Virus genome (UHGV): UHGV-0087143
Direction: 5' to 3' (one strand)
DNA length: 11,682 bases
Source: a virus
Shown here: positions 1-11,682 of the stretch, piece after piece
Numbering within the stretch: position 1 is the first letter of the stretch
How the letters are laid out: each line of letters starts with the position of its first letter
Made by a program: the position numbers and the translations under genes
Notes under the pieces: model-generated
What the model saw: the letters and a program-made list of their open reading frames with translations, nothing else
Database searches by the model: none
What the model was told of the DNA's origin: nothing

Positions 1-219
1 CTGATCCTGATCGTCTTGCCTTATTGAATATGATTGCTATTTGCATTTAAAATCGAGACCTGGTTTTTCTACTGAAATGATTATGACTTCAATGACCCTT
101 GAATGAAGTCTATTCGGTTTTCTTTAGATGTTCGCCTCACATAATCTTCAAGTGATGTTCCTTACATCTCCCTAGAGCGTTAAGATAGTTAACTGATTGA
201 GTTTTCAGGGTATGAAAGG

Positions 220-885
220 ATGAGCAACACTACCGACATCTTAAGCACGATAGCTGATATCACTATGGCTGGTACTGCTGTATGGGCTGCATTCAAAGCT
301 AATGATTGGTTTAAAACCAAGCGTCTTGAGAGTGCTGAAAACTTCTATAAAGAAGTACACAATCTCCATAAACGTTACTATTCAGCTATCCAATACGTTG
401 AGGATTCAAGAAGAATATTTGATAGTCAGTATGGGTTGCATTCGCCAATATCTGAACCTAAAGACAAGTCATTGCAATGGGGGGTTAAATCGAACTCTTA
501 CAAAATCATCGCTGAACTAGATTATCTGGCATCGTCACTACAAATGATGGATGCAATGGGTAACAAACTTAGCCCTAAATCGGCTTCACTGGTTAATGAT
601 ATGATGGAAGCACATGGACGATTCTGTAATGATGTGATGAACTTCAATGACTCAGTTTGGAAGGTTATAAGGGCAGGTATAACTGAAGAGAACATCCCAC
701 ATACGCGAGGCTATGTGAACGGCGATTACATGACTATCCTTACCAGTATGGATGAACCTGTAAGAATATCTTTTAGGTTAAAAGAAATCAGTTTTAAAGA
801 TTTTTACCTGCATGAAACTACTATGCAGTCAGTAATAACGAGGCTGAAATCGCTTATCGCCAGAACAGGTAAAAACAGGACATAA
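220..885 (+). CDS. Hypothetical protein, 221 aa, with N-terminal hydrophobic segment (ILSTIADITMAGTAVWAAF)
   Basis: Long ORF from ATG 220; weak SD-like AGGG 9 nt upstream; no domain recognised by eye. The 302-520 track ORF is nested in another frame and treated as spurious. Confidence 0.6.
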   Translation: MSNTTDILSTIADITMAGTAVWAAFKANDWFKTKRLESAENFYKEVHNLHKRYYSAIQYVEDSRRIFDSQYGLHSPISEPKDKSLQWGVKSNSYKIIAELDYLASSLQMMDAMGNKLSPKSASLVNDMMEAHGRFCNDVMNFNDSVWKVIRAGITEENIPHTRGYVNGDYMTILTSMDEPVRISFRLKEISFKDFYLHETTMQSVITRLKSLIARTGKNRT

Positions 886-897
886 ACAGGTTAGTAC

Positions 898-1015
898 CTA
901 TGCAATTTAAAGGCATTTTCCCAAGTATCTATGCAATCCTACACAGATTCTATGCAGTATCGATATAGTCTCTTTTTAGCGTAACCTATTGAAATATATA
1001 GAGAATCTATGAAGT
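898..1015. repeat. Cluster of four CTATG(C/A)A(A/G)T motifs (898-906, 929-937, 950-958, 1007-1015) plus a diverged ~22-bp direct repeat (965-986, 1011-1032)
   Basis: Read directly: cCTATGCAAT, tCTATGCAAT, tCTATGCAGT, tCTATGAAGT, all same strand; atagtctctttttagcgtaacc vs gaagtctcttttcagggtaaac. Confidence 0.5.
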
Positions 1016-1496
1016 CTCTTTTCAGGGTAAACTGTATCGTGTTAGTCGTCCCTCTCCAGACACTACATACAGTGCTATATACAGGGATATATAACGATAT
1101 ATAGTTGTTTGACCACTACCAATATTCCCTCAAAGTGACTATCAAGCTGCTTAACAGTTTCCCATGTGAAAGTTAGGAGGTGATGGTTATAGTTCCTTCG
1201 TAGTTCCTCTTAAAAAATCACTTGCAGACACCTTAATCTCTATACAGATTTCATGTAGAACACGATTAGTACGTAGAAGAGTCATTATGTTAAAAACACA
1301 CTGTGTTTATATCAGTACTGATTTATAAGGGTTTTGTGTATTGGGTGATAAGAGGCTATACAGCACCTTGAGAGCATGTCTTCTAAGTCATTGACATATA
1401 AGGTCACAGAAGTTTGTGTCTGTTACAGAGAAAACTGGACAGGACTTCACAGAACTATAAAATGTTACAGCTATTGATAGGTGAAATCTTCTTGAT

Positions 1497-1553
1497 AGAT
1501 GCTATGAAGTGTGATGAAGGCTTCTTGAGGTGGAGTTAACAGATGCTATGAAG
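1497..1553. repeat. Two perfect copies of 13-mer AGATGCTATGAAG, 44 bp apart (1497-1509, 1541-1553)
   Basis: Exact 13-bp direct repeat; shares the CTATGAAG core with the 898-1015 cluster. Confidence 0.6.
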
Positions 1554-2028
1554 AAAGTCAATAGTTGGTTATAGATATTTTAACTGCTTTTGCAAAGGGG
1601 GGTGCTATATCGTGAATCTGGGGTACTTAACAGCCATCAATCATGAGGTAGATTAGGGGTTGGTACAAGCCCAACTAACCGAATCAACTGTGTAGATATT
1701 TTTTAAGATTATCGGTGAAGGGGGAATGCAGAGGGGGTACTATGATTTTTATAAAAATTTTCAGAAGCCAAATAACCATTGTACAGATTTTATACAATCC
1801 TACCAAGCCTCATAGTTGATTCGATTAGGTGATTCAGTAATGAATTACTTCATGAAGCTAATCTCATAGAAAGCTCTGTAGCGAGTTTTAACCCCATTTT
1901 TAGGGGTAGTCTATAGGGATGTACCACCCACCTTAAAATAAAGGGGTAAAATCGCTTAGAATGCGTTACAGAGCGTCTGAGAAGCTATATTCACAGATTT
2001 TACTAAAGTCTCAGACTTCTAAGTAGTC

Positions 2029-2338
2029 TTTTTAACAGGAGGGGTTCCCCTATGGTCACATATCCCCTCTCTCGTTTAGTGGCCCTTGATAGCACCCGAT
2101 TAATAACCTAGAGAGTATGCCTGTAAAACTTCTGTATCAGGTCAACTATAAGAGGTCTGGATATTACCTTGTAAGATTCCTGGTAGTGATTATGCAGAGG
2201 GCTTGATAAGAGTGTTTAACGGGAGGAAGAGATATCTTTTTAACAGGAGGGTTCTTTCTCATGTATCACCCTCTCTTCCCGCTAAGTAAGCTACACAGAC
2301 CTAGAGAACATGCCTTCACAGCATCTATATCAGGTCAG
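2029..2338. repeat. Two diverged ~100-115-bp modules (about 2029-2145 and 2237-2338), each beginning TTTTTAACAGGAGGG
   Basis: Shared blocks in the same order: TTTTTAACAGGAGGG, CCCTCTCT(C)..TTAG, CCTAGAGA(G/A)(T/C)ATGCCT, TCT(G/A)TATCAGGTCA. Related CTCT(C)TCCCG(C/T)T(A/T)AG boxes recur at about 2727-2740 and 2910-2923. Confidence 0.6.
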
Positions 2339-2425
2339 ATTTAGAGGGTTTTGATAGAGTCTGTAAAGGTACTTGACAGGTAACTATGAAGTTGCTAGGA
2401 AGAGCTGTTTAACGGGAGGAAGAGA
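2213..2425. repeat. Perfect 20-bp direct repeat TGTTTAACGGGAGGAAGAGA (2213-2232 and 2406-2425)
   Basis: Exact match read in sequence; a related GTTTAACGGGGG lies at 3239-3250. Confidence 0.8.
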
Positions 2426-2847
2426 ACCATGAAACCGAAGGTAGGTTCTGTCTTAACAGTGAAGTCTTAAGAAATGTCTTGAGAGTTACCTAAACAAGCC
2501 TCTTAAGTAAAAGACAACACTCCAGAAAGAGTGTCTGTTTAACAAACTTCTCAAAAGCTCTTAAAAAGTCTGTTAAGAGAGGGCTATGTGAACATATCAT
2601 ACCATTTTGTCAATGCTTTTGTCTTTGACCTAAATCAATAAAATGTATCGTTTGATATGGTTTTAAGCAAGACGGCTAAAAAAATCTTTTTAGAGGGGCG
2701 CTTCGCTTGGGGTCACTATGTTCTTTCTCTCCCGTTAAGAGGGAAGTTACAGGGACATTTCAAAGCCCTGATAAGGTAAGCCCGATGATAACAGAAACAG
2801 AGGGCAAAACCACTTATCAACACTGTGAACGAATAACGTAAAGGGCT

Positions 2848-2884
2848 GGTTAAGAAGGTCGGTTAAGAAGGTCGGTTAAGAAGG
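2848..2884. repeat. Tandem array, about 2.8 copies of 13-bp unit GGTTAAGAAGGTC
   Basis: Copies at 2848-2860 and 2861-2873, partial copy 2874-2884; related TTAAGA(A/G)GG boxes at about 2464, 2570, 2735 and 2932. Confidence 0.8.
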
Positions 2885-2950
2885 GAGCTTCCCTTTCTTG
2901 GGTGTCGCTCTTCTCCCGCTTAGTGGATAGCTAAGAAGGCTTGAAGTTAT

Positions 2951-3126
2951 CTGTGAAGGTACTGGACAGTCTTATATATTGGGTGATTACAACTCGTTGA
3001 AAAATAAGTATTTTTAGAAATCACTGTTAAGGTTACAGAGTCAACTGTGAAGAGACTTGTCAGTTCTCTATATTGGGTGATTACAACTTATTGAAAAGTA
3101 AGAACTTTTAGAAATTACTGTCAGAG
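2951..3126. repeat. Two copies of a ~82-bp direct repeat (2951-3032 and 3045-3126), period 94 bp
   Basis: Identical 20-mer core TATATTGGGTGATTACAACT at 2975-2994 and 3069-3088 with ~85% identical flanks; partial third copy TATTGGGTGAT at 1339-1349; CTGTRAAGGTACTTGACAG-like heads also at 2361-2379. Confidence 0.8.
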
Positions 3127-3240
3127 AGGTGAATACTTGATAGATACAGCTTTCCGGTTCTGTCAAGCTATTTTTTAATAGATAGCACAAAATGCTAAAG
3201 ATACCCCTATACCATCTCGTACAGGGGGGGTTGAAGGAGT

Positions 3241-3429
3241 TTAACGGGGGTCTGTGTGGTTATCTGTTCTGGTCCTGTCCTTGAGGTCAAACGACCATTC
3301 ACGACCAAACAATCTGAACACGATAAACACTCTGACGATGAAATAGCGAAGTAGTAAGCCTGCAATCAGCCCAACACCTCCACCAGCCCATACATCAGGT
3401 GACCCCAGCTCAGGAGGGAGATTTACCAT
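3241..3429 (-). CDS. Small predicted membrane protein, 62 aa (one hydrophobic helix GGGVGLIAGLLLRYFIVRVFIVF, charged C-terminus)
   Basis: Track ORF on minus strand, divergent from the 3633 gene; weak SD GAAGG upstream; candidate promoter upstream. Could still be a chance ORF. Confidence 0.3.
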   Translation of the reverse strand: MVNLPPELGSPDVWAGGGVGLIAGLLLRYFIVRVFIVFRLFGREWSFDLKDRTRTDNHTDPR

Positions 3430-3514: not shown

Positions 3515-3544
3515 ATTATACCATAAATGTTAATAAATTGTTAA
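3515..3544 (-). promoter_or_regulatory. Candidate sigma70-type promoter (minus strand): TTAACA, 18-nt spacer, extended -10 TGGTATAAT
   Basis: Minus-strand -10 TATAAT is the complement of 3515-3520, TG of the extended -10 at 3522-3523, -35 TTAACA is the complement of 3539-3544. Confidence 0.4.
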
Positions 3545-3551
3545 AAAATAC

Positions 3552-3580
3552 TTGACATTAGTCTTTGAAACTGCTAGTAT
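3552..3580 (+). promoter_or_regulatory. Candidate sigma70-type promoter (plus strand): TTGACA, 17-nt spacer, TAGTAT
   Basis: TTGACA at 3552-3557 and TAGTAT at 3575-3580 with exact 17-bp spacing, ~50 nt upstream of the 3633 start codon. Confidence 0.5.
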
Positions 3581-3632: not shown

Positions 3633-4187
3633 ATGCAGGATTCAGAATTTAGAGCGATGCTTCAGGCATCAAGAGAACGCAACAAGCACAACTCCTACGC
3701 TTACACAGACACCCCCACCAGCTACGAAGTACCAGCCTTTTCCAAAACCGAACGTAAAAACATTGAAGCGGTCATTCGTAGCATTACGCCACGAGACAGA
3801 TTTATGCCAGTACGCAAAGAAAAAGAGAATACTTTAAAAACTTTCTTGATGAGCTTTGATTCTTACGAGCAACTACCATCAAAAATTGAAGATGTAATTA
3901 TCGGTACTTGTCGCAGTCTTGGAAGAGATAATTATCACCGGAAGGTTTTTTATTTACTGCGAAGTCTTGATGAGATTAGTTCAAGCACAGTGACGAGCCA
4001 TCTTCAAAGACAAGCAACCAGACTTAGCTACGAATTACCAAGTGATAAATATTGCGCTAACTTAGCCACTATTTGCATGAAAGTTATTGAGACAATTAAT
4101 CATCATGCGGAAGTTGGAAATATCAGCCTTACAACCAGTGAACCAGACTTTGAATTTGACGTATACGCACAAGCAGAGGAATTTTAA
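3633..4187 (+). CDS. Hypothetical protein, 184 aa, first gene of a rightward operon
   Basis: ORF with SD AAGAGG (3615-3620) upstream of ATG 3633; no domain recognised. The antisense track ORF 4062-4442 is treated as spurious. Confidence 0.65.
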   Translation: MQDSEFRAMLQASRERNKHNSYAYTDTPTSYEVPAFSKTERKNIEAVIRSITPRDRFMPVRKEKENTLKTFLMSFDSYEQLPSKIEDVIIGTCRSLGRDNYHRKVFYLLRSLDEISSSTVTSHLQRQATRLSYELPSDKYCANLATICMKVIETINHHAEVGNISLTTSEPDFEFDVYAQAEEF

Positions 4188-4188
4188 A

Positions 4189-4476
4189 ATGGAAAATAAA
4201 CACACACTAACCAGAGTTACAAAGACAGCCTTTGAAGAACTTAACCGAATCAAAAACATTACAGGTCTGCCACACTCAGCAGTGATGAAGCTTGCAATTA
4301 ACCGTGATATTAACGAACAAGATTTGCTTAATAGTCGCTTAGAGGCTGCAAGACACCATATCAGGATTAAGCAAGATGACCTTGATAGTCTGAAATCTTT
4401 AAATGCTTTTGGACTGGATTTAGCAAGGTTGCTAAGCATCAAAATTCACAAGTTAAAGTTAGAGATGGAGGTTTAA
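4189..4476 (+). CDS. Small putative DNA-binding protein, 95 aa, ribbon-helix-helix-like N-terminus plus C-terminal coiled coil
   Basis: Start chosen at ATG 4189 (GAGGA SD 8 nt upstream, directly after the upstream stop) instead of the overlapping in-frame track start 4087; N-terminal TRVTKTAFEELNRIKNITGLPHSAVMKLAI resembles a strand-helix-helix fold. Motif-level only. Confidence 0.5.
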   Translation: MENKHTLTRVTKTAFEELNRIKNITGLPHSAVMKLAINRDINEQDLLNSRLEAARHHIRIKQDDLDSLKSLNAFGLDLARLLSIKIHKLKLEMEV

Positions 4477-4862
4477 TGTATGACTTTTATAAACATCGTG
4501 ACCATTTGGTAAGATTTGACGGTAAAGTCTGGAAAGACGTAACACAAACCAATAAACCCAAGTTTACCCACCAGCAATTAGCCTCAAGATTTGATATCTG
4601 GACTGAAGCACAAAAAGATAATGGTGATTTCGAGTTTATCAGGGGTTTTGATTATGCTTACGAAGACGACCTTAAAGACGCCATTAAATTAATTGAGAAT
4701 TTCAACTCTATTAAAAATGGTGACAAGCACAAAGCCAATGGCAACAGATACGATAAAGATTTAATCATTGATGCAATCACCAAAGGACAATCACAAAGTT
4801 ATATTTCTGAGAAATACGGTTTATCACGCAGTCAATACTACAAGATTAAAGCGTCTGTGTAA
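4476..4862 (+). CDS. Putative helix-turn-helix DNA-binding protein, 128 aa
   Basis: Start ATG overlaps upstream stop (TAATG, translational coupling); C-terminal IDAITKGQSQSYISEKYGLSRSQYYKIK looks like a resolvase/sigma-region-4-type HTH. Confidence 0.6.
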   Translation: MYDFYKHRDHLVRFDGKVWKDVTQTNKPKFTHQQLASRFDIWTEAQKDNGDFEFIRGFDYAYEDDLKDAIKLIENFNSIKNGDKHKANGNRYDKDLIIDAITKGQSQSYISEKYGLSRSQYYKIKASV

Positions 4863-5000
4863 GCCTGTGAGAATGAGTGAGACTCAAAGATGAGCTACCC
4901 TATTACTAAGGTGTCTCACTCCCTCTGTAACCCGCATGGTTACTGGCCTCAGAATGGCTATTTTGGCAGATTTAAGATGTGTTTTTAGAGGATTTTAAAA

Positions 5001-5324
5001 ATGAACAATTACCCGCTACAGATTTTCGTTGATAGCGACACCGCTCTGATGATTCAGGCTTTCAGTGATTCCGGTGTATCAATTGACTTTGACAGGCTGT
5101 TAAGGCTAATGGCTAATAACTCAGAAACAATTGAAGATTTTATTCAGTCGGTGGAGTTTAACGAGCCTCGAATGATGCTACCAATTAAAGACAGCAACAT
5201 GAAAAGATTGGTTATCGAGCAAACGAACAAATACAGCGTTAGCCCTGAAAGATATCTCAAGGCAGCTATAGCAATTTTGTACGCTGACAATATTTTGGTG
5301 ACGGATTCGAAGGTGGTGCATTAA
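5001..5324 (+). CDS. Hypothetical protein, 107 aa
   Basis: ORF from ATG 5001; no domain recognised. Confidence 0.55.
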   Translation: MNNYPLQIFVDSDTALMIQAFSDSGVSIDFDRLLRLMANNSETIEDFIQSVEFNEPRMMLPIKDSNMKRLVIEQTNKYSVSPERYLKAAIAILYADNILVTDSKVVH

Positions 5325-5389
5325 TGGAATTGGTGATTATCTGTTTTGTATTGATTGGTATGATTGCAGGTGCATCTATTAAAGTATAA
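5324..5389 (+). CDS. Possible 21-aa hydrophobic peptide (MELVIICFVLIGMIAGASIKV)
   Basis: ATG overlaps stop of the 107-aa gene (TAATG); strong SD GAAGGTGG 7 nt upstream; entirely hydrophobic. Below the track length cut-off; speculative. Confidence 0.25.
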   Translation: MELVIICFVLIGMIAGASIKV

Positions 5390-5454
5390 ATGTTACCAAT
5401 CTGTTAAAAAGCTGTTGACAAATAACCTTAAGCATGACATAATTTTAATTATGG

Positions 5455-5481
5455 GAGAGTAATTCTCTCTTATATTTTTTT
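5455..5481 (+). terminator. Candidate rho-independent terminator for the 3633-5389 operon
   Basis: Stem GAGAG/CTCTC (5455-5459 / 5465-5469), loop TAATT, followed by TATATTTTTTT. Confidence 0.4.
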
Positions 5482-5659
5482 CAATAATCCGATGGATGGA
5501 TGGATATTCTGAGTTGGTGAGGTATGTTCTATACCGAACATTCTGAAAGGTGCAATGCTTTTCGCTACATGGCCTCTTATATAACCTGAGAGGTCATCTC
5601 GAAAAGTACTCTTGTTCATTCGTTTGAATCCTTCAGAAGTTTTAATTTCTTCACCTTAT

Positions 5660-5702
5660 GAATAGCCCTTTATAAGAAATTATCTAGGGCTATTCAGTTT
5701 TT
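5660..5702 (+). terminator. Candidate stem-loop/terminator: 10-bp stem GAATAGCCCT / AGGGCTATTC, 16-nt loop, then AGTTTTT
   Basis: Perfect 10-bp inverted repeat at 5660-5669 and 5686-5695; T-run only on the plus strand. Confidence 0.35.
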
Positions 5703-5776
5703 AAAAAGCATACTTGGCAAACCGCCTTTTAAGCCTCTTCTAAGTTCGAGGATGTCAGGTGTGCTTTTTAAAAACT
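5696..5776. promoter_or_regulatory. Perfect 15-bp inverted repeat pair AGTTTTTAAAAAGCA (5696-5710) / TGCTTTTTAAAAACT (5762-5776), 51 bp apart; operator-like
   Basis: Exact reverse complements; each contains the palindrome TTTTTAAAAA; ends 36 bp upstream of the 5812 start codon. Confidence 0.4.
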
Positions 5777-5811
5777 GAAACATAAATTATCTTAGAAGAG
5801 GAAAGGTATTA

Positions 5812-6516
5812 ATGGCTATCCGTGATGAAAATGAAATGATTATTGAAAGCCGACCAAGTGCACTTGATATTCACGAATTAACTTTGCGTGAATCTTTTGA
5901 TAGAGCTTGGCGGGAATCACACGAAGTAAATAAAGGTCCATATATTCCACCAGAACCACTCGAGATTCCAAGAGTTGAAATTGATTTTTCTATGAACGAA
6001 CAGTGTGAACTTGATTTGAAGTTGAAGCTACAACGCCGATATTTCCAAGCTATTAAAGACTCTCAAGAAGCAATGAGAAGTGTTTACGAGAAAATTCAGT
6101 CCAAGCTTGAAGACGAAATCGACGAAATGGCTATTTTGATGGAGCTTCAAACCAATTCTTATGCTTATTTCTCTCGACTAGACCGTGACGGTTGGGGGTA
6201 TGACCCTGTAGAGATTGGTAAAGTGATTGCAGATTTACCAGAAGGTCAAAGGGTTATTCGTACGGAAAGGGCCATCAGAGCGCCACATCGACTGTCTCTA
6301 ATTGTTGCTGATAAATCACAAGCTGAGCTTGAAGAAATTGCCAAAGAGAAACTGATGAAAGCAAGAGAAAATGAGATTAATTTGCTGAAATCAAGACTGG
6401 CTAAGCTGATTAGTGACCATCAAGCGCTGGCTAAGGAGTACCGTCAAGAGTTGGCACAGATTATCAGCTTCAATGATTTTCTGAGTGTTCCACGAGAATT
6501 TAGCAAGGCTGTTTGA
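5812..6516 (+). CDS. Hypothetical acidic protein, 234 aa, with C-terminal coiled-coil-like region
   Basis: ORF with SD GAGGAAAGG upstream of ATG 5812; no domain recognised. Confidence 0.65.
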   Translation: MAIRDENEMIIESRPSALDIHELTLRESFDRAWRESHEVNKGPYIPPEPLEIPRVEIDFSMNEQCELDLKLKLQRRYFQAIKDSQEAMRSVYEKIQSKLEDEIDEMAILMELQTNSYAYFSRLDRDGWGYDPVEIGKVIADLPEGQRVIRTERAIRAPHRLSLIVADKSQAELEEIAKEKLMKARENEINLLKSRLAKLISDHQALAKEYRQELAQIISFNDFLSVPREFSKAV

Positions 6517-6539
6517 TTATGAATTAAAAGAGGTGATTA

Positions 6540-6752
6540 ATGTTTGAAGAACGTTTAGAGACTATTCGGTCTGTTTGCGAAAGACTCCAGCTACAACCAA
6601 ATAGACAAAAGCTACGAATTAAGAATAACCGTCATTACATCACCTCACACAAACCAAAAACACGCAAGATTCCAAAGTGGTGTCTTGATAAATTACCAAG
6701 TGATTGTCAGATTGTCGGTGAAGATGGTAATTATTATCTTGTCAGACATTAA
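6540..6752 (+). CDS. Small basic protein, 70 aa (three Cys, Lys/Arg-rich centre)
   Basis: ORF with SD GAGGTG (6530-6535) before ATG 6540; function unknown. Confidence 0.5.
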   Translation: MFEERLETIRSVCERLQLQPNRQKLRIKNNRHYITSHKPKTRKIPKWCLDKLPSDCQIVGEDGNYYLVRH

Positions 6753-6802
6753 AAAAGAATTGGTTGGGTATATGAGATAGGTTCTATCGAATCTATAGTA
6801 CG

Positions 6803-6844
6803 GGGAGAGATTATCGATATTATTCGGTAGTTTCTCCCTTTTTT
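6803..6844 (+). terminator. Candidate terminator: stem GGGAGA/TCTCCC around a 24-nt loop (containing palindrome TATCGATA), followed by TTTTTT
   Basis: GGGAGA 6803-6808, TCTCCC 6833-6838, T6 at 6839-6844; loop unusually large so strength uncertain. Confidence 0.4.
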
Positions 6845-6893: not shown

Positions 6894-8978
6894 ATGAGCA
6901 AATTTACAGTTGATAGTTTTATTGTTGAGCTGGGCTTCAGTGAAAACGTTATTAAGGGATTGCAAAGAGTTGAAAAGGCAGCTTTGCAGTCAGCACAAAG
7001 AATTGAACGTAATTTGAATAGAGCGTTTAAGGTCGATACCAAGCAACTTGACAGCAATTTAACGGCTTCTTTAAAGTCAATGGAAGGGAAAATTAATAAG
7101 ACCTTTGACAAGATTGAGCAGCGTCTTAAAAACACTAGAGCGTTTAAGATTAAAACGGAAATTGAGGATACTTTAAAGCCACTTAGACAGCCAAGACAGC
7201 CACGAATTAGCGGCAACAGAGCAATCACAGCAGCTTATTCAGCGAATATGAGCAAGTTAAAGGGCTTTGACCCTATTTTGCAGAAATACATCAAATCTCA
7301 GTTTTACGGGCTATCTGCTAAAGCTGGGTCAATGGATAATTCAAAATTCAATGAGAAGTTAGCTCAGCTAAATGCTTCAGTCAGAGAAGCAATCACTAAA
7401 GCCAGAGGTCATACATCCACCAGCAAAAACAATCACAGTGAAAATGCTTCAAATGGTTTAGATGTATTAGCTACAAGTGCAATCAAAGCAGGTACAGCCA
7501 TTTATAGTTTTCAGACAGCCTTAGAAGCTTATAGGAAGGTTATGGAAGTTGGTCTGAAAAAAGAAGCATCACAACGAGCGGCACAATTCGTTTTAGGTGA
7601 TGAAGGTGCTAAACGAGCTACAGAATTTGTTAAGAATCTTGCTGATAGTAGTGGTGTAGACCAGATTGAAACATTAAGCAGTTTTGCTAAGTTTTCCGCT
7701 GGTGCTGGTGATATGAATGCAGACCAGAAAGAATCCTTATTTTCTAATGTGATTGGTACATCCCGACTAATGGGTTTAAGCACTGATGAGATTAACGGGA
7801 TTCTAAAAGCTTTCGAGCAGATGGCGAGCAAGGGCAAGATTCAAGCTGAAGAATTACGCGGTCAGTTAGGGGACAGAATGGCAGGTGCTTTTCAGTTATT
7901 TGCCAGAAGTCTTGGGATGACTACAGAAGAATTAGACAAGGCCATGAAGGACGGTAAGGTTCTTTCTAAAGATGTTCTTCCTAAAGTATCCGCTGAAATG
8001 GGAAGGATGATTGATAAAGCTGGTGGATGGGAAAAGATTATTAACTCTACTCAGACGCAGTTAGGCCGCCTTTCTAATTCATGGAATAATAATCTGGCCT
8101 TAATGTTCGACGGTTCACAGGAAGGTTTAACAGACTTTACAAGGTCACTGACTAATTTACTTAATTCACTAGGTGGTCAATCTAAAAATCTTGGTGAACA
8201 TTTTGGCGACTTGATGAAAAGCATGTCAAACGGTGTTGATGATTTAACCACGATTAGCTACCGAGCACAGGGATTCTTTGACAGAGTGACCCTTGCTTAC
8301 AGAGAATTAAATGACACTCAAAAAGCTGTAGCTGATGGTATCGCAAATGGCCTGTTAAGTGCATTAAAGGGGCTTGCTGGTATAGTCGCTGTAAGGTCTG
8401 GGATTGGTGCTGTAGGTGGTATCTGGAACTTAATTAGGGCTATTTCCACGCTTGGAAATGTAGCAAATACAGCAGCAGGAAGAATCAATTCACGTTCTGC
8501 TGGTAGTGTTGAAGGTGGTAAAGGAAAATTATCTGTAGCTGATGCAATTACCAAAGTAATGATTGTCGGTATGGCAACTGATGTGATTAACTCCATTGTT
8601 AAACCACTCTATGAACGCCAGATGAGTAAGTCAGATAATCCAATTGATAAAGTTGTAAGGTCAAAGGTGGAACCCACAGACCAAGCATTGACTGGTGACA
8701 TGAACTCTTTAGCTGCTGTTTTATGGGCTATGGTTCAGGGCAAATCAAAAGATGTTCCACAGTTTTCACCGGAAGCATTAAATAATCTGAAAGGTCGAGT
8801 GGAAACATTCACACAAGATTTAAAGGTTATCAAGCCGTCAGTAAATATTCAGCCTCAGACAATCAATATCACAACTCAGACGGTACTTGATGGAAAGGTT
8901 ATTGATGAAAGAACCACATCGCATATTAATCGTATGCAGGAAGATACCTTGATTAGCTCAGCTTACCCAGAGGAATAA
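6894..8978 (+). CDS. Phage tail tape measure protein-like, 694 aa
   Basis: Internal segment ...GLSTDEINGILKAFEQMASKGKIQAEELRGQLGDRMAGAFQLFARSLGMTTEELDKAMKDGKV... matches the conserved tape-measure core (ELRGQLGERLPGA-type motif); helical N-terminus and Gly/Ala-rich hydrophobic segment (GIANGLLSALKGLAGIVAVRSGIGAVGGIW) typical of tape measure proteins; SD GAGGTG (6878-6883) before ATG 6894. The four antisense track ORFs inside it are treated as spurious. Confidence 0.8.
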   Translation: MSKFTVDSFIVELGFSENVIKGLQRVEKAALQSAQRIERNLNRAFKVDTKQLDSNLTASLKSMEGKINKTFDKIEQRLKNTRAFKIKTEIEDTLKPLRQPRQPRISGNRAITAAYSANMSKLKGFDPILQKYIKSQFYGLSAKAGSMDNSKFNEKLAQLNASVREAITKARGHTSTSKNNHSENASNGLDVLATSAIKAGTAIYSFQTALEAYRKVMEVGLKKEASQRAAQFVLGDEGAKRATEFVKNLADSSGVDQIETLSSFAKFSAGAGDMNADQKESLFSNVIGTSRLMGLSTDEINGILKAFEQMASKGKIQAEELRGQLGDRMAGAFQLFARSLGMTTEELDKAMKDGKVLSKDVLPKVSAEMGRMIDKAGGWEKIINSTQTQLGRLSNSWNNNLALMFDGSQEGLTDFTRSLTNLLNSLGGQSKNLGEHFGDLMKSMSNGVDDLTTISYRAQGFFDRVTLAYRELNDTQKAVADGIANGLLSALKGLAGIVAVRSGIGAVGGIWNLIRAISTLGNVANTAAGRINSRSAGSVEGGKGKLSVADAITKVMIVGMATDVINSIVKPLYERQMSKSDNPIDKVVRSKVEPTDQALTGDMNSLAAVLWAMVQGKSKDVPQFSPEALNNLKGRVETFTQDLKVIKPSVNIQPQTINITTQTVLDGKVIDERTTSHINRMQEDTLISSAYPEE

Positions 8979-9212
8979 ACAATGTTAGAGCTACTAATAT
9001 TTATTGCCACACATGGCAACCTATTAATCTTTATCTAGTATGACGACTCAACTATGAATAGTCGAATGCTACGTGAAATCTCCTGAACAGATATACCCAC
9101 TGAAAAATAGAATTTACGTAGCTCACGCTTAACAGAGAAAATACTTATATATCAAAGGCTTGGTTAAAAATGACTGAAATACACTAAGTCTTTGAAATCA
9201 AAGGAGAATTTA

Positions 9213-9986
9213 ATGATTTACTCTAATCAGATTCGTTACAGTGGCAAAGATGGCATCTATTTCCACTTAAGAGATAATGTAGATGCCTTCTTAACTTTAT
9301 CAGCAACTGAGAACATGGAATTTGATAGCCCTATGCAGGTGACTACACAGAACATGCAATCAGGGCAAACCGTCACAGATAATGTGCAAAGAGCACCCAG
9401 AACAATCACTATTAGTGGTGTCGTTGTAGTTGGCTATGAAGGAAGCTTATTATTAACTCGTCAGGGTCAATTAGTAGAAAACTTCATCGACACCCTTGAA
9501 AGCTGGCGTGACCAGAAGCAGATTATTTCGGTCATCTGTAAAGATGGTATCAAGATTGATGACTCCATTATTACAAGTTTTAAAGCCTCTAAAGATGTTG
9601 GTATTTCAAATGGTCTAAGAATCCAGCTAACTTTTCAGGAAATTAACTTTAAAGCTGTTGTGGGGCAGACTGATATCTCGGCTGCAACTGGAAAAGCCGC
9701 GACTACGAATGATGGTGGTGTGACCAGTAAAAAGAATGCGGGTAACGTGACCACTGAACGCAATAACGCACCTATGCTGATGTGTCAGGAACTGTACAGT
9801 TACTCAGCATCTGAGCTATCTGATGAAGCGCTAAGGGTCCGTAGCAATTGCTCTAAAAATGTCACGGTGAAAGATGGTGTAAGCACCTTCACAGCCTCAG
9901 CTAATGAGCAGGCTTCAAAAGTGCTTAAGTCGGGTAATGCTTTACGGAAGTTTTCTGTGAATCCGAATAAGAAGGGCACTTATTGA
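9213..9986 (+). CDS. Hypothetical protein, 257 aa, downstream of the tape measure gene (possibly tail-associated by position only)
   Basis: Start chosen at ATG 9213 (SD AAGGAG 6 nt upstream) instead of the in-frame track start at 9192, which is a TTG codon; no domain recognised. Confidence 0.65.
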
Positions 9987-9990
9987 GACA

Positions 9991-10013
9991 TAAAAAGGGG
10001 CTTCATAGCCCCT
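9991..10013 (-). terminator. Rho-independent terminator for the recombinase gene, shared between convergent genes
   Basis: GC-rich stem AGGGGC/GCCCCT (9996-10001 / 10008-10013), 6-nt loop; on the minus strand the stem is followed by a U-run (complement of A-run 9992-9996); lies between the 9986 and 10019 stop codons. Confidence 0.6.
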
Positions 10014-10018
10014 GAAAA

Positions 10019-11539
10019 TTACAGTTGATAAGCGTCAATATCCAGTAGCTCTTTATCAGCAATTTCAAAGATTGGTGACCCATCATTTAGCGGTAACGGG
10101 TTTGTAGGTATGGTGATTTCAGTGTCGTTCTGTAGCGTTACAGTTACCGAATCCTTACCCAATGTAAGCCCTTTTAGATGTTTGGACAAAATCAACTGAC
10201 ACTCGACACGACCCGCTTTAGTTGTCAGGTCAATATCTTTAAGCTGGGGTAGTTCCTTATCAGTGAGTGAAGCCTTACGCCTCATGTTATCAATAGTAGT
10301 CTGTAGTTCTGTGCGCTTCTGGTTAAGTCCCTTCACCTGTGCTTTCAACTCTGTAATGTCATCCATTTCAAGAAGTAGGGCGGTAGCTTTCTTGATTCTG
10401 GCTGTGACAATTTCAACCTCATGCTGTAGAGATGCAATCTTCCCCTCTGCTTCTCCATCATTCCCCACGTCAATCATCCCCAGAAAATTATCAATCATCC
10501 ATCGGTCAAACGGTTTACGCTTCAACGGTGGAACATCACAGCGACCGTCTAAGTGGTTATTGCACCTGTAGACCCCTGCATACTTATTCTTGGTTCCGGT
10601 AGGATGGACACTAGCCCCACACTGACACCGGAATAATCCCTTGAAGATGTTAATCGTTAATGGGTTATCACTTGCAGGTGTGCGGCCTTTACGATTCTTG
10701 TCGAGAATCTCTTGAGCTTTATTGAACGTTGCAGCATCTATAGCGGCTTCGTAGTAGTTCGGTATAGCGGGGCGGTCATTACGCTGTGATGCTGGTAACG
10801 TGCCTATTGTTGTCTCCGACCTTAAGATGGTGCGTACAGAATGGACGCTAAACCCATTAGCATCTTTACGGCGACTAAACGACTTTATACCGTTGCTTTG
10901 AAGGTGACGGGCGATGTTATGCAGACTTTCACCACTTAGCAGCAGCTTGAAAATCAGTCTTACAGTCTCAGCGTGTTCATTGAGTTTGAGAGTATCGGGG
11001 TCAATCCATCCGGGAACCATCTTTGTTAAACGTTGTTTACCAGCAAGGGCAAGTTTTGCACGTTGTTTCCACTTCTCGCTAACACGGAAAGACTTCTGCT
11101 TACTCTCCTGATGCGCTAGGTAGCTTTTAACCCGCTGAATGATTGAGATTCCTAAATCATCGGATAGAGCATCCCTTGTGTAGATTAGCCCATCCTGTAG
11201 AGTGTGAATCTCGATACCATGAGCAATAATGCGATTCATCAAGGCTTCTGTTTCAAGATGCTCTAATCGGCCTATACGGTCGATACTCTCAACTAGCAGA
11301 ATTGTACCTCCTGGAAACTCCCCAGCCTCAATACGGGCTAACATGTCACCAAACTGACCAGTAAGGTGTTTACCTTTGTAACCGGATAGACCCTCATCAC
11401 TGAAAGACGCTACTACTTGAGCATCGCTATTCTTCTTCAACCATTGTTTGAACAGGTCGTTTTGTCGTCTGGTTGAATCAGCACCTTCAGCACCTTGTGT
11501 GGCTGATGAGAATCTCAAGTATGTTATTACGGTTCTCAC
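10019..11539 (-). CDS. int: Large serine recombinase (serine integrase), 506 aa
   Basis: N-terminal resolvase-type catalytic domain with the serine nucleophile motif (YLRFSSATQ) and downstream LLVESIDRIGR; central recombinase region; Cys-rich zinc-ribbon-like segment (CQCGAS...YRCNNHLDGRCD); C-terminal coiled-coil-like region. GTG start with SD GGGAG 9 nt upstream. Antisense track ORFs 10263-10571 and 10914-11111 treated as spurious. Confidence 0.9.
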   Translation of the reverse strand: MRTVITYLRFSSATQGAEGADSTRRQNDLFKQWLKKNSDAQVVASFSDEGLSGYKGKHLTGQFGDMLARIEAGEFPGGTILLVESIDRIGRLEHLETEALMNRIIAHGIEIHTLQDGLIYTRDALSDDLGISIIQRVKSYLAHQESKQKSFRVSEKWKQRAKLALAGKQRLTKMVPGWIDPDTLKLNEHAETVRLIFKLLLSGESLHNIARHLQSNGIKSFSRRKDANGFSVHSVRTILRSETTIGTLPASQRNDRPAIPNYYEAAIDAATFNKAQEILDKNRKGRTPASDNPLTINIFKGLFRCQCGASVHPTGTKNKYAGVYRCNNHLDGRCDVPPLKRKPFDRWMIDNFLGMIDVGNDGEAEGKIASLQHEVEIVTARIKKATALLLEMDDITELKAQVKGLNQKRTELQTTIDNMRRKASLTDKELPQLKDIDLTTKAGRVECQLILSKHLKGLTLGKDSVTVTLQNDTEITIPTNPLPLNDGSPIFEIADKELLDIDAYQL

Positions 11540-11611: not shown

Positions 11612-11640
11612 CCGAATAGCTACAATACAATGACCCTTGA
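11612..11640. other. Candidate recombinase attachment-site junction (right end), partner of 90-117
   Basis: CCGAATAG, 8-nt spacer, CAATGACCCTTGA, ~75 bp upstream of the recombinase start; sequence beyond 11640 turns GC-rich (CCTCGCCGCTTCCCCTGGCCGACG). Confidence 0.3.
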
Positions 11641-11682
11641 TTTACCTCGCCGCTTCCCCTGGCCGACGTTACTTTCGGTCTG

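Follow-up and report, generated by a model that had tools for sequence, protein, structure and literature searches.

A tape measure and tube initiator pair in an integrated Escherichia coli island: a candidate satellite of Felix O1-like phages

The UHGV virus genome UHGV-0087143, a stretch of 11,682 nucleotides referred to here as the window, carries a 694-aa open reading frame (ORF) that resembles a phage tape measure gene. An earlier note on this DNA described the gene as a ruler without recognisable tube, sheath, chaperone or baseplate partners, which raises the question of what a tail-length determinant does outside a tail module. In the present analysis, the evidence favoured the reading that the window is an integrative satellite of virulent Felix O1-like myophages, which would swap its own tape measure and tube initiator into chimeric tails. 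We put the probability of this reading, which is drawn from sequence comparison, at roughly 0.6. The gene that raises the question is the following.

6894..8978, plus strand: tape measure protein of Felixounavirus type, 694 aa (Pfam, NCBIfam and PHROG profiles; ratio of nonsynonymous to synonymous substitution rates, dN/dS, 0.25-0.34)

The identity of the 694-aa protein was examined with profile searches. It matched Pfam PF20155 TMP_3 with 74.2 bits (cut-off 41; E 1.5e-20) and NCBIfam TIGR02675 with 60.7 bits (cut-off 21.35; E 1.2e-16), and its residues 153-694 matched PHROG 4036, 'tail length tape measure protein', at 8e-99. These results indicated that the ORF encodes a genuine tape measure protein, as the earlier note had proposed. 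Its nearest phage relatives were all of Felixounavirus type, with genomes of 84-90 kb and 31-33% identity, and no phage in the collection reached 60% identity to the island protein. Against gp074 of the Felixounavirus wV8 (742 aa), the island protein was 33% identical overall and 48 aa shorter. The similarity was distributed unevenly. In a five-way alignment, the N-terminal 45 residues agreed with the phage at 34 positions (~75%), and a core around residues 290-400 was also conserved. At the C-terminal end (QEDTLISSAYPEE against QEDILLSSSYPEE), identity was 48% over the last 40 residues, with 10 of the 13 final residues identical. Divergence from the phage protein was greatest outside the termini and the core.

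The gene that follows the tape measure gene was then decisive for the question of partners.

9213..9986, plus strand: tail tube initiator, 257 aa (Dit_like; Bas63 gp18 orthologue; profiles and alignments; dN/dS 0.05-0.24)

The 257-aa reading frame starts at the ATG at 9213, which is preceded by an AAAGGAG ribosome-binding site. The protein matched Pfam PF21821 Dit_like with 73.5 bits (cut-off 24.2; 2e-20) and PHROG 3721 at 1.7e-133. It shared 77% identity with Bas63 gp18 (bas63_0018) and 77-78% with the protein encoded just downstream of the tape measure in Felix O1-like phages, and RefSeq labels its homologues 'phage baseplate protein'. According to a cryo-electron microscopy study of phage Bas63 (JohannRWettstein), the tube initiator of its baseplate hub is gp18, which forms a hexamer, has a tube-like fold and sends a C-terminal extension of ~100 aa through the baseplate beside the spacer protein; in the same structure, the last 25 residues of the tape measure touch spike and hub (PMC12609058). 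Taken together, profiles and orthology indicated that the 257-aa protein is a tail tube initiator, and the view that this gene has no tail features had to be abandoned. The wider claim of missing tail partners survived in part: no tube, sheath, hub or chaperone homologue was found anywhere in the window by tblastn and tblastx against one entire Felixounavirus genome or with Pfam and PHROGs, but a baseplate partner, the tube initiator, is present.

The tube initiator also gave the closest link to a phage group. When the whole window was compared with 50,697 phage records by megablast, only positions 9237-9746 (510 nt) matched, with 90-96% DNA identity to 219 records, essentially all of them Felix O1-like phages of E. 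coli and Salmonella. Residues 1-190, which form the tube-like domain, were near-invariant across islands and phage. The baseplate arm included ~65 island-specific residues, and the last 12 residues were conserved again. Among the islands, tube initiator alleles ranged from 95% to 72% DNA identity with known phages, and the allele of the window stems from a recent exchange with a Felixounavirus.

We further compared the pair with its counterpart in the phages. In wV8, gp074 is followed by gp075 (265 aa), the gene that matches the tube initiator, and the Bas63 pair is bas63_0017 and bas63_0018. The island pair keeps this order, with the tube initiator gene directly 3' of the tape measure gene, but across a 234-nt spacer (8979-9212), whereas the Felixounavirus pair overlaps and is embedded in a virion module of 25 genes that also encodes chaperones, spacer, hub and spike. 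The island pair stands alone, and when the whole window was searched against all 88.5 kb of the wV8 genome by tblastn, tblastx and blastn, only these two genes had homologues. Compared with the Felixounavirus tail core (Bas63 gp17/gp18), the island pair has kept both ends of the tape measure and the tube-like domain of the initiator, whereas the tape measure as a whole has diverged by 67% and the initiator has a different baseplate-spanning arm. These results demonstrated that the tape measure and the tube initiator form a two-gene tail-core module and that the tape measure is not an orphan. In the closest island, a 71-nt element of the spacer (9067-9137) was found upstream of the tape measure gene too. 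This element and a TTACGTA palindrome 5' of the tube initiator were considered together as a shared late promoter and rejected, as wV8 has no counterpart.

The question of what carries this module was answered by the ends of the window. Positions 1-102 and 11628-11682 were 100% identical to the yciI-tonB intergenic region of E. coli K-12 and overlapped there by 13 bp. The empty site in K-12 holds a single copy of CAATGACCCTTGA, which overlaps the tonB ATG. The window thus holds a complete mobile island of 11,538 bp, bounded by a 13-bp direct repeat at 90-102 and 11628-11640, and it encodes a recombinase of its own.

90..102, no strand: left attachment site (attL), left 13-bp direct repeat CAATGACCCTTGA (K-12 empty-site comparison)
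11628..11640, no strand: right attachment site (attR), right CAATGACCCTTGA copy with the tonB start codon (K-12 comparison)
10019..11539, minus strand: large serine recombinase (integrase), 506 aa (Resolvase, Recombinase and Zn_ribbon_recom domains; PHROG 95 'integrase', 1.4e-81)

The island has a serine recombinase, 13-bp attachment repeats, an empty site and an incomplete set of helper-related virion genes, as expected of a phage satellite. Independent calls in public assemblies reproduced its gene set of 221, 184, 95, 128, 107, 234, 70, 694, 257 and 506 aa. After insertion, the native promoter region of tonB lies to the left of the island, and island DNA with TACAAT-like boxes now stands upstream of tonB; tonB expression and its control by Fur may be altered in carriers.

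The island is not a single occurrence. Matches to the tape measure gene were found in 470 of 5426 complete E. coli genomes (~1 in 12), up to three per genome and all chromosomal. All four of the loci sampled belonged to the same island family, with one layout at three insertion sites: at tonB, inside yecE and next to wrbA, each with a different serine recombinase. In this layout, the left part opens with either a 221-aa gene or a small recombinase, followed by a long stretch free of ORFs and by four or five small genes, and the right part consists of a ~235-aa gene, a ~70-aa gene, the tape measure, the tube initiator and the recombinase. Relatives of the island also occur in E. albertii, Citrobacter and Enterobacter. 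In pairwise comparisons between islands, the tape measure had a dN/dS of 0.25-0.34 and the tube initiator one of 0.05-0.24, with the remaining genes at 0.15-0.56; values of 0.05-0.56 indicate purifying selection and therefore that the island genes are maintained. The window was further compared with the islands at loci L002, L005, L006, L013, L016, L018 and L019. Against L019, the 234-aa gene had a synonymous divergence (dS) of 0.04, compared with 1.27 in the tape measure and 0.63 in the tube initiator. The islands are mosaics in this respect, with a more than 30-fold spread of synonymous divergence among the modules of the same two islands. Since dS between two islands depends on the module, the sequences indicate frequent recombination among islands.

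These results bear on the idea that the tape measure and the tube initiator are functionless leftovers of a conventional tail module in a decayed prophage. A minority of copies are indeed disrupted, some riddled with insertion sequences and with truncated tape measure genes. The family as a whole has a different character: three insertion sites, each with its cognate recombinase, share the compact layout of 10 genes, all genes are under the selection described above, no other fragment of a helper gene is present, and the exact 694-aa protein was found in 65 blocks of public assemblies. Carriers of the exact protein include GCA_022941905.2 and GCA_039647835.1, and the strains NCTC9082 and TB182A carry relatives. 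In addition, Felixounaviruses are virulent, and no listed feature of the wV8 record is annotated as an integrase. Selection and architecture largely refuted this explanation, which we consider very improbable. The earlier note had named a complete tail module in a degraded prophage as one finding that would overturn its view; only the tape measure and the tube initiator are shared with the helper, and the genes are maintained. Its other suggestion, that the tape measure domain was co-opted for something else, found no support either, as the helper-like N-terminus, the core and the hub-contacting C-terminus are kept under purifying selection.

In contractile tails, the tape measure is held at its C-terminus by hub and spike, and the hub carries the ring of the tube initiator. 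From this ring, tube subunits polymerise around the tape measure as far as its N-terminal end. Contact surfaces that resemble those of the helper, set in proteins that otherwise diverge, make substitution the most likely mechanism. According to this model, the island tape measure and tube initiator would, during helper infection, take the place of their helper counterparts in the hub complex from which the tube polymerises. Chimeric tails built in this way would consist of helper hub, spike, wedges, tube, sheath and fibres around a satellite ruler. At 0.15 nm per residue, 694 aa correspond to a tail of 104 nm, in agreement with the ~100 nm of the earlier note, and the 742 aa of the helper correspond to 111 nm. 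The deficit of 48 residues therefore predicts chimeric tails ~7 nm, or roughly two tube rings, shorter than helper tails; the helical rise reported for Bas63 is 38.1, read as Å (PMC12609058). Across the islands, tape measure lengths fell into two classes, 687-694 aa and 725 aa, and the helper protein of 742 aa is longer than both; for the 725-aa class, the predicted shortening is less than one ring. The suggestion that an element with its own ruler could re-size a helper tail was therefore only partly borne out. The use of an own ruler is the reading that the evidence favours, and the strategy has been demonstrated for PLE, an element of Vibrio cholerae that resembles phage-inducible chromosomal islands (PMC12987554), but the predicted change is only ~7 nm. 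We infer that induction, replication and packaging are provided by the helper, that both island proteins are incorporated into tails and that the island benefits from this.

PLEs are about 18 kb in size, and the island measures 11.5 kb. The two share several features: each is a small island in a bacterial chromosome that encodes a large serine recombinase and has a long non-coding region, with a virulent myophage as known or proposed helper. Both also carry their own tape measure and one baseplate-core protein without tube, sheath, wedge or fibre genes, and in both the satellite tape measure is shorter than that of the helper. In the V. cholerae system, the satellite tape measure, a chaperone and the hub protein BhuB enter particles from which the helper tape measure is excluded, and the tails are shorter by 10 nm; what the satellite gains from such chimeric tails was described as unknown (PMC12987554). 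There are also differences. No sequence relationship was detected, the island being set against PLE by its published description, and the partners are E. coli and Felixounavirus instead of V. cholerae and ICP1. No chaperone was found in the island, and the tube initiator stands where some PLEs have BhuB. Neither a RepA_N or other replication-protein match nor a capsid-remodelling gene was recognisable in the island with Pfam, PHROGs and NCBIfam. Finally, PLE tail proteins are 20-41% identical to those of ICP1, whereas the tube-like domain of the island initiator shares ~95% DNA identity with the helper.

A second comparison concerned the E. coli elements of Barth et al. (2023). These islands were likewise defined by bioinformatics; they have a baseplate component and a predicted tape measure yet lack a full tail module, and a subset of them have serine recombinases. 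The phages to which they are linked, Justusliebigvirus, belong to another subfamily. The elements encode capsid and decoration proteins as well as RepA_N, and most of them have tyrosine integrases near tRNA genes (PMC10055350). Major capsid, decoration and RepA_N genes were not detected in the island with Pfam and PHROGs. Four accessions with islands at tonB, yecE and wrbA did not occur in the supplementary text of that study as searched, in which Table S6 is possibly incomplete. With the same two databases, the island proteins gave no marker of phage-inducible chromosomal islands (PICI) or capsid-forming PICI (cf-PICI), namely capsid, terminase, AlpA and Pri-Rep, and no P4 marker (Sid, Psu, Delta). 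Judged by its gene content, the island is not a PLE, a Barth et al. element, a PICI, a cf-PICI or a P4-like element. Within an incomplete coverage of the literature, no paper was found that couples Felixounavirus or Felix O1 with phage satellites. The satellite family thus appears to be undescribed, and the concept of a satellite with its own tail core is already published.

Helper-like interaction surfaces beside divergent middles, together with a divergent baseplate arm, would also suit a decoy. The island tape measure and tube initiator would then act as dominant-negative proteins that join the hub complex of the helper, stall or misdirect the assembly of its tails and protect the bacteria, and they would not serve transfer of the island. 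Blocking tail assembly is an established defence of satellites and prophages, as seen for Tai (PMC11364771) and for Rta of PLE11 (PMC12987554), and no packaging or capsid gene was recognisable in the island with Pfam and PHROGs. Tai and Rta resemble the island pair in being encoded by mobile elements and aimed at helper tail assembly. They differ in that they are small inhibitors and not structural homologues of tail proteins; the PLE inhibitor is a separate small protein and not the tape measure, and PADLOC gave no match in the island. A poison, moreover, needs no full-length ruler of 694 aa under purifying selection over its whole length, with intact hub-contacting and head-proximal ends. 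The mobility apparatus, the several attachment sites and the several host species also imply horizontal transfer. On balance, we regard the decoy as unlikely, and the satellite reading retains our preference.

Two genes upstream of the tape measure raise a further alternative.

5812..6516, plus strand: acidic long-helix protein, 234 aa (ORF; isoelectric point, pI, 5.1)
6540..6752, plus strand: basic protein, 70 aa (ORF; pI 9.7; confined to this island family)

The earlier note had called these proteins acidic and basic, respectively, and without tail features, and both descriptions were upheld. Neither protein had a significant match in Pfam, PHROG, NCBIfam or PADLOC or a sequence relative in the PDB, and the 234-aa protein had no homologue among phages by tblastn. 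The AlphaFold model of the 234-aa protein contained helices at 60-114 and 170-224 at low confidence (predicted local distance difference test, pLDDT, 56.6). Foldseek against the PDB returned only generic coiled coils for it (E > 0.2), a search that such a low-confidence model makes uninformative. The 70-aa protein was modelled as one helix plus a small sheet (pLDDT 77.7) and had no Foldseek match in the PDB at E <= 0.001. It has 103 homologues, the named ones from Escherichia, Shigella or Citrobacter, and both families are limited to these islands in the three genera. The 70-aa protein is present in every lineage, with 57% identity between lineages; the 234-aa protein diverges fast, with 27%. 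Both were considered as tail chaperones and rejected, because BLASTP and hhalign against the two wV8 chaperones were negative (hhalign gave a probability of 0.3% for the 234-aa protein against the helper chaperone), as were the PDB search and the folds. A G/GT frameshift arrangement was likewise rejected, in line with the earlier note: the 70-aa frame has a stop at 6534-6536, past the 234-aa stop at 6514-6516, and the frames do not overlap.

One of these upstream proteins could inhibit the tape measure or hub of the helper, with the island pair serving as resistant replacement parts for the satellite only. Such a scheme would suit an island-only small protein that stands directly upstream of the tape measure in every lineage, as well as a tape measure that is most unlike its helper counterpart outside the termini and the core. 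It would also have a parallel in Rta, an 80-aa satellite-only protein without recognisable homologues (PMC12987554). The same work weakens the parallel, as chimeric tails of PLE form without Rta and most PLEs have no Rta (PMC12987554), and neither sequence nor fold offers a clue to the role of the 70- and 234-aa proteins. We judged this explanation improbable and returned to the simple substitution of the tail core by a satellite.

How a satellite without recognisable packaging genes could use its helper was addressed in the left part of the island.

886..3240, no strand: ORF-free repeat-rich region of 2.3 kb (no ORF >44 aa on either strand)
2848..2886, plus strand: three tandem copies of GGTTAAGAAGGTC, iteron-like (Tandem Repeats Finder score 74, 100% matches)

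This region is modular and was 88% identical between islands whose recombinases and several other genes diverge much more; in some islands, a small resolvase-type recombinase lies inside this 'non-coding' region. The core of the tandem repeat, GTTAAGAAGG, recurs at wV8 positions 15305 and 15448, beside the terminal repeat. wV8 has an ORF-free stretch of its own at 13885-15530 (1.6 kb), which holds 24 of the 69 plus-strand YTGTTAAG-type words in 1.9% of the genome. PhageTerm has been used to define the genome ends of phage vB_EcoM_E9 (PMC11737134). The E9 genome starts and ends with the same 580 nt, a direct terminal repeat that maps to wV8 14351-14953, within the ORF-free stretch. A term search of the Felix O1 genome paper found no mention of an ORF-free stretch or an origin of replication (PMC3185647).

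Single words proved unsuitable as specific signals: the enrichment of GTTAAS in the window was not significant, and GTTAAGAAGG was over-represented across the whole phage genome. They were therefore replaced by an unbiased k-mer scan with controls, in which every 600-nt window of wV8 was compared with island positions 886-3240 at k = 8, 9 and 10. For each k, the top eight wV8 windows all lay at 14.4-15.8 kb (z 3.9-7.4). The ORF-free regions of four other islands peaked in the same stretch (14.3-15.7 kb; z 3.4-6.0), and island coding DNA gave no such peak on wV8. Against 60 dinucleotide-preserving shuffles, the score was 173 versus a maximum of 115 at k = 8 and 40 versus 19 at k = 10. The left 6.8 kb of the island had no alignable homology to any phage, and the exact boundaries of the E9 terminal repeat gave only chance-level scores against the island. 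The likeness lies in short repeated words and is thus the kind of signal expected of arrays of protein-binding sites. These results suggested that the region is a candidate cis-acting mimic of the packaging or replication region of the helper. RNA-based functions were also considered. Rfam (E <= 1) gave no family in the ORF-free region and two sub-threshold matches elsewhere in the window. RNAalifold on positions 2535-3240 of nine islands gave a covariation term of -1.44 kcal/mol, in an alignment of two haplotype groups, so that the compensatory pairs amount to one or two events. An antisense RNA against the start regions of helper tail genes, on the SviR model, was rejected, as duplex energies lay within the shuffled background. 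We tentatively suggest, with the balance leaning against so specific a proposal, that the islands form a previously unrecognised, widely distributed and minimal E. coli satellite family of strictly virulent Felix O1-like phages that combines a serine recombinase, a tail-core pair and a protein-free array that mimics the terminal-repeat region of the helper and recruits its replication or packaging enzymes, without an initiator, terminase or capsid factor of its own.

Several points weigh against the satellite reading. Excision, replication, packaging and transduction of the island are predictions. There was no virome or concatemer signal: the IMG/VR copies are mostly isolate genomes, and a 33-kb metagenome contig has one copy. 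No replication initiator, terminase subunit, capsid-size factor or chaperone was recognisable with Pfam, PHROGs and NCBIfam. With no chaperone recognised in the island, its tape measure would have to use those of the helper despite 33% identity. The length deficits of the island tape measures are small (17-55 aa), so re-sizing is probably not the selected function. The words shared with the terminal region could equally reflect sites for a host DNA-binding protein and not a helper protein.

The remaining features of the island are given below.

220..885, plus strand: 221-aa protein with a hydrophobic N-terminus, first gene of the island (ORF; present in related islands)
3241..3429, minus strand: 62-aa small membrane-type ORF with a hydrophobic segment (annotated as a gene by RefSeq and in other assemblies)
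3633..4187, plus strand: 184-aa protein (ORF; dN/dS 0.19-0.29 against other islands; single weak phage match)
4189..4476, plus strand: 95-aa basic protein (gene call in public assemblies)
4476..4862, plus strand: 128-aa protein of a variable cargo slot, C-terminal helix-turn-helix (HTH_28 0.003, below the cut-off)
5001..5324, plus strand: 107-aa acidic protein (ORF; in all islands examined; dN/dS 0.22-0.56)
6802..6839, plus strand: terminator-like hairpin directly upstream of the tape measure gene (stem of 16 pairs with a T run behind it; kept in the closest island)
9993..10018, no strand: terminator hairpin between the convergent tube initiator and recombinase genes (terminator scan)

The 221-aa protein had no match in Pfam, PHROG, NCBIfam or PADLOC. 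The 62-aa ORF could encode a small membrane, toxin or lysis-type protein, and a terminator-like hairpin (3227-3204) follows it at the edge of the non-coding region. The 95-aa protein is possibly a small DNA-binding regulator; it matched DndE and the P27 small terminase, both below threshold. In the cargo slot (window 4300-4990), the relatives at loci L002, L005 and L006 have instead an HNH endonuclease plus a small ORF, or a DNA N6-adenine methyltransferase. The hairpin at 9993-10018 was 92% identical over 26 nt to the wV8 terminator 3' of the tail-fibre gene.

Both rightward operons are preceded by a 43-nt element (3515-3557 and 5378-5420; 74% identical), which ends in a TTGACA -35 box and includes TGTTA-type words like those of the helper terminal region. 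This element may be a common operator. The promoter of the second operon (5415-5443) agreed with the sigma-70 consensus in 11 of 12 positions. The leader of the 234-aa gene (5445-5800) was highly structured, with a terminator-like hairpin directly after the promoter (5450-5474), a 17-nt hairpin (5659-5696) and 27-nt inverted repeats (5693-5719 and 5753-5779). It also gave a weak, sub-threshold Rfam match to the rhtB small RNA (E 0.086). The leader may exert attenuator or antitermination control of the late operon.

The PLE of V. cholerae is so far the only satellite for which an own tape measure and chimeric tails have been demonstrated, and a second, unrelated family would matter. If the satellite reading is true, virulent coliphages have dedicated satellites. 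Mimicry of the words of the terminal repeat, if real, suggests a mobilisation route for a satellite that lacks genes for replication or packaging. In both proteins, the pattern of helper-like ends and island-specific middles points to the interfaces that matter in the assembly of the tail core. The proposed helpers are Felix O1-like phages, which are used in Salmonella typing, biocontrol and therapy and for which a full cryo-electron microscopy atlas (Bas63) is available, and the host is the best genetic system at hand. The island could also account for differences among strains in how susceptible they are to Felixounavirus therapy phages.

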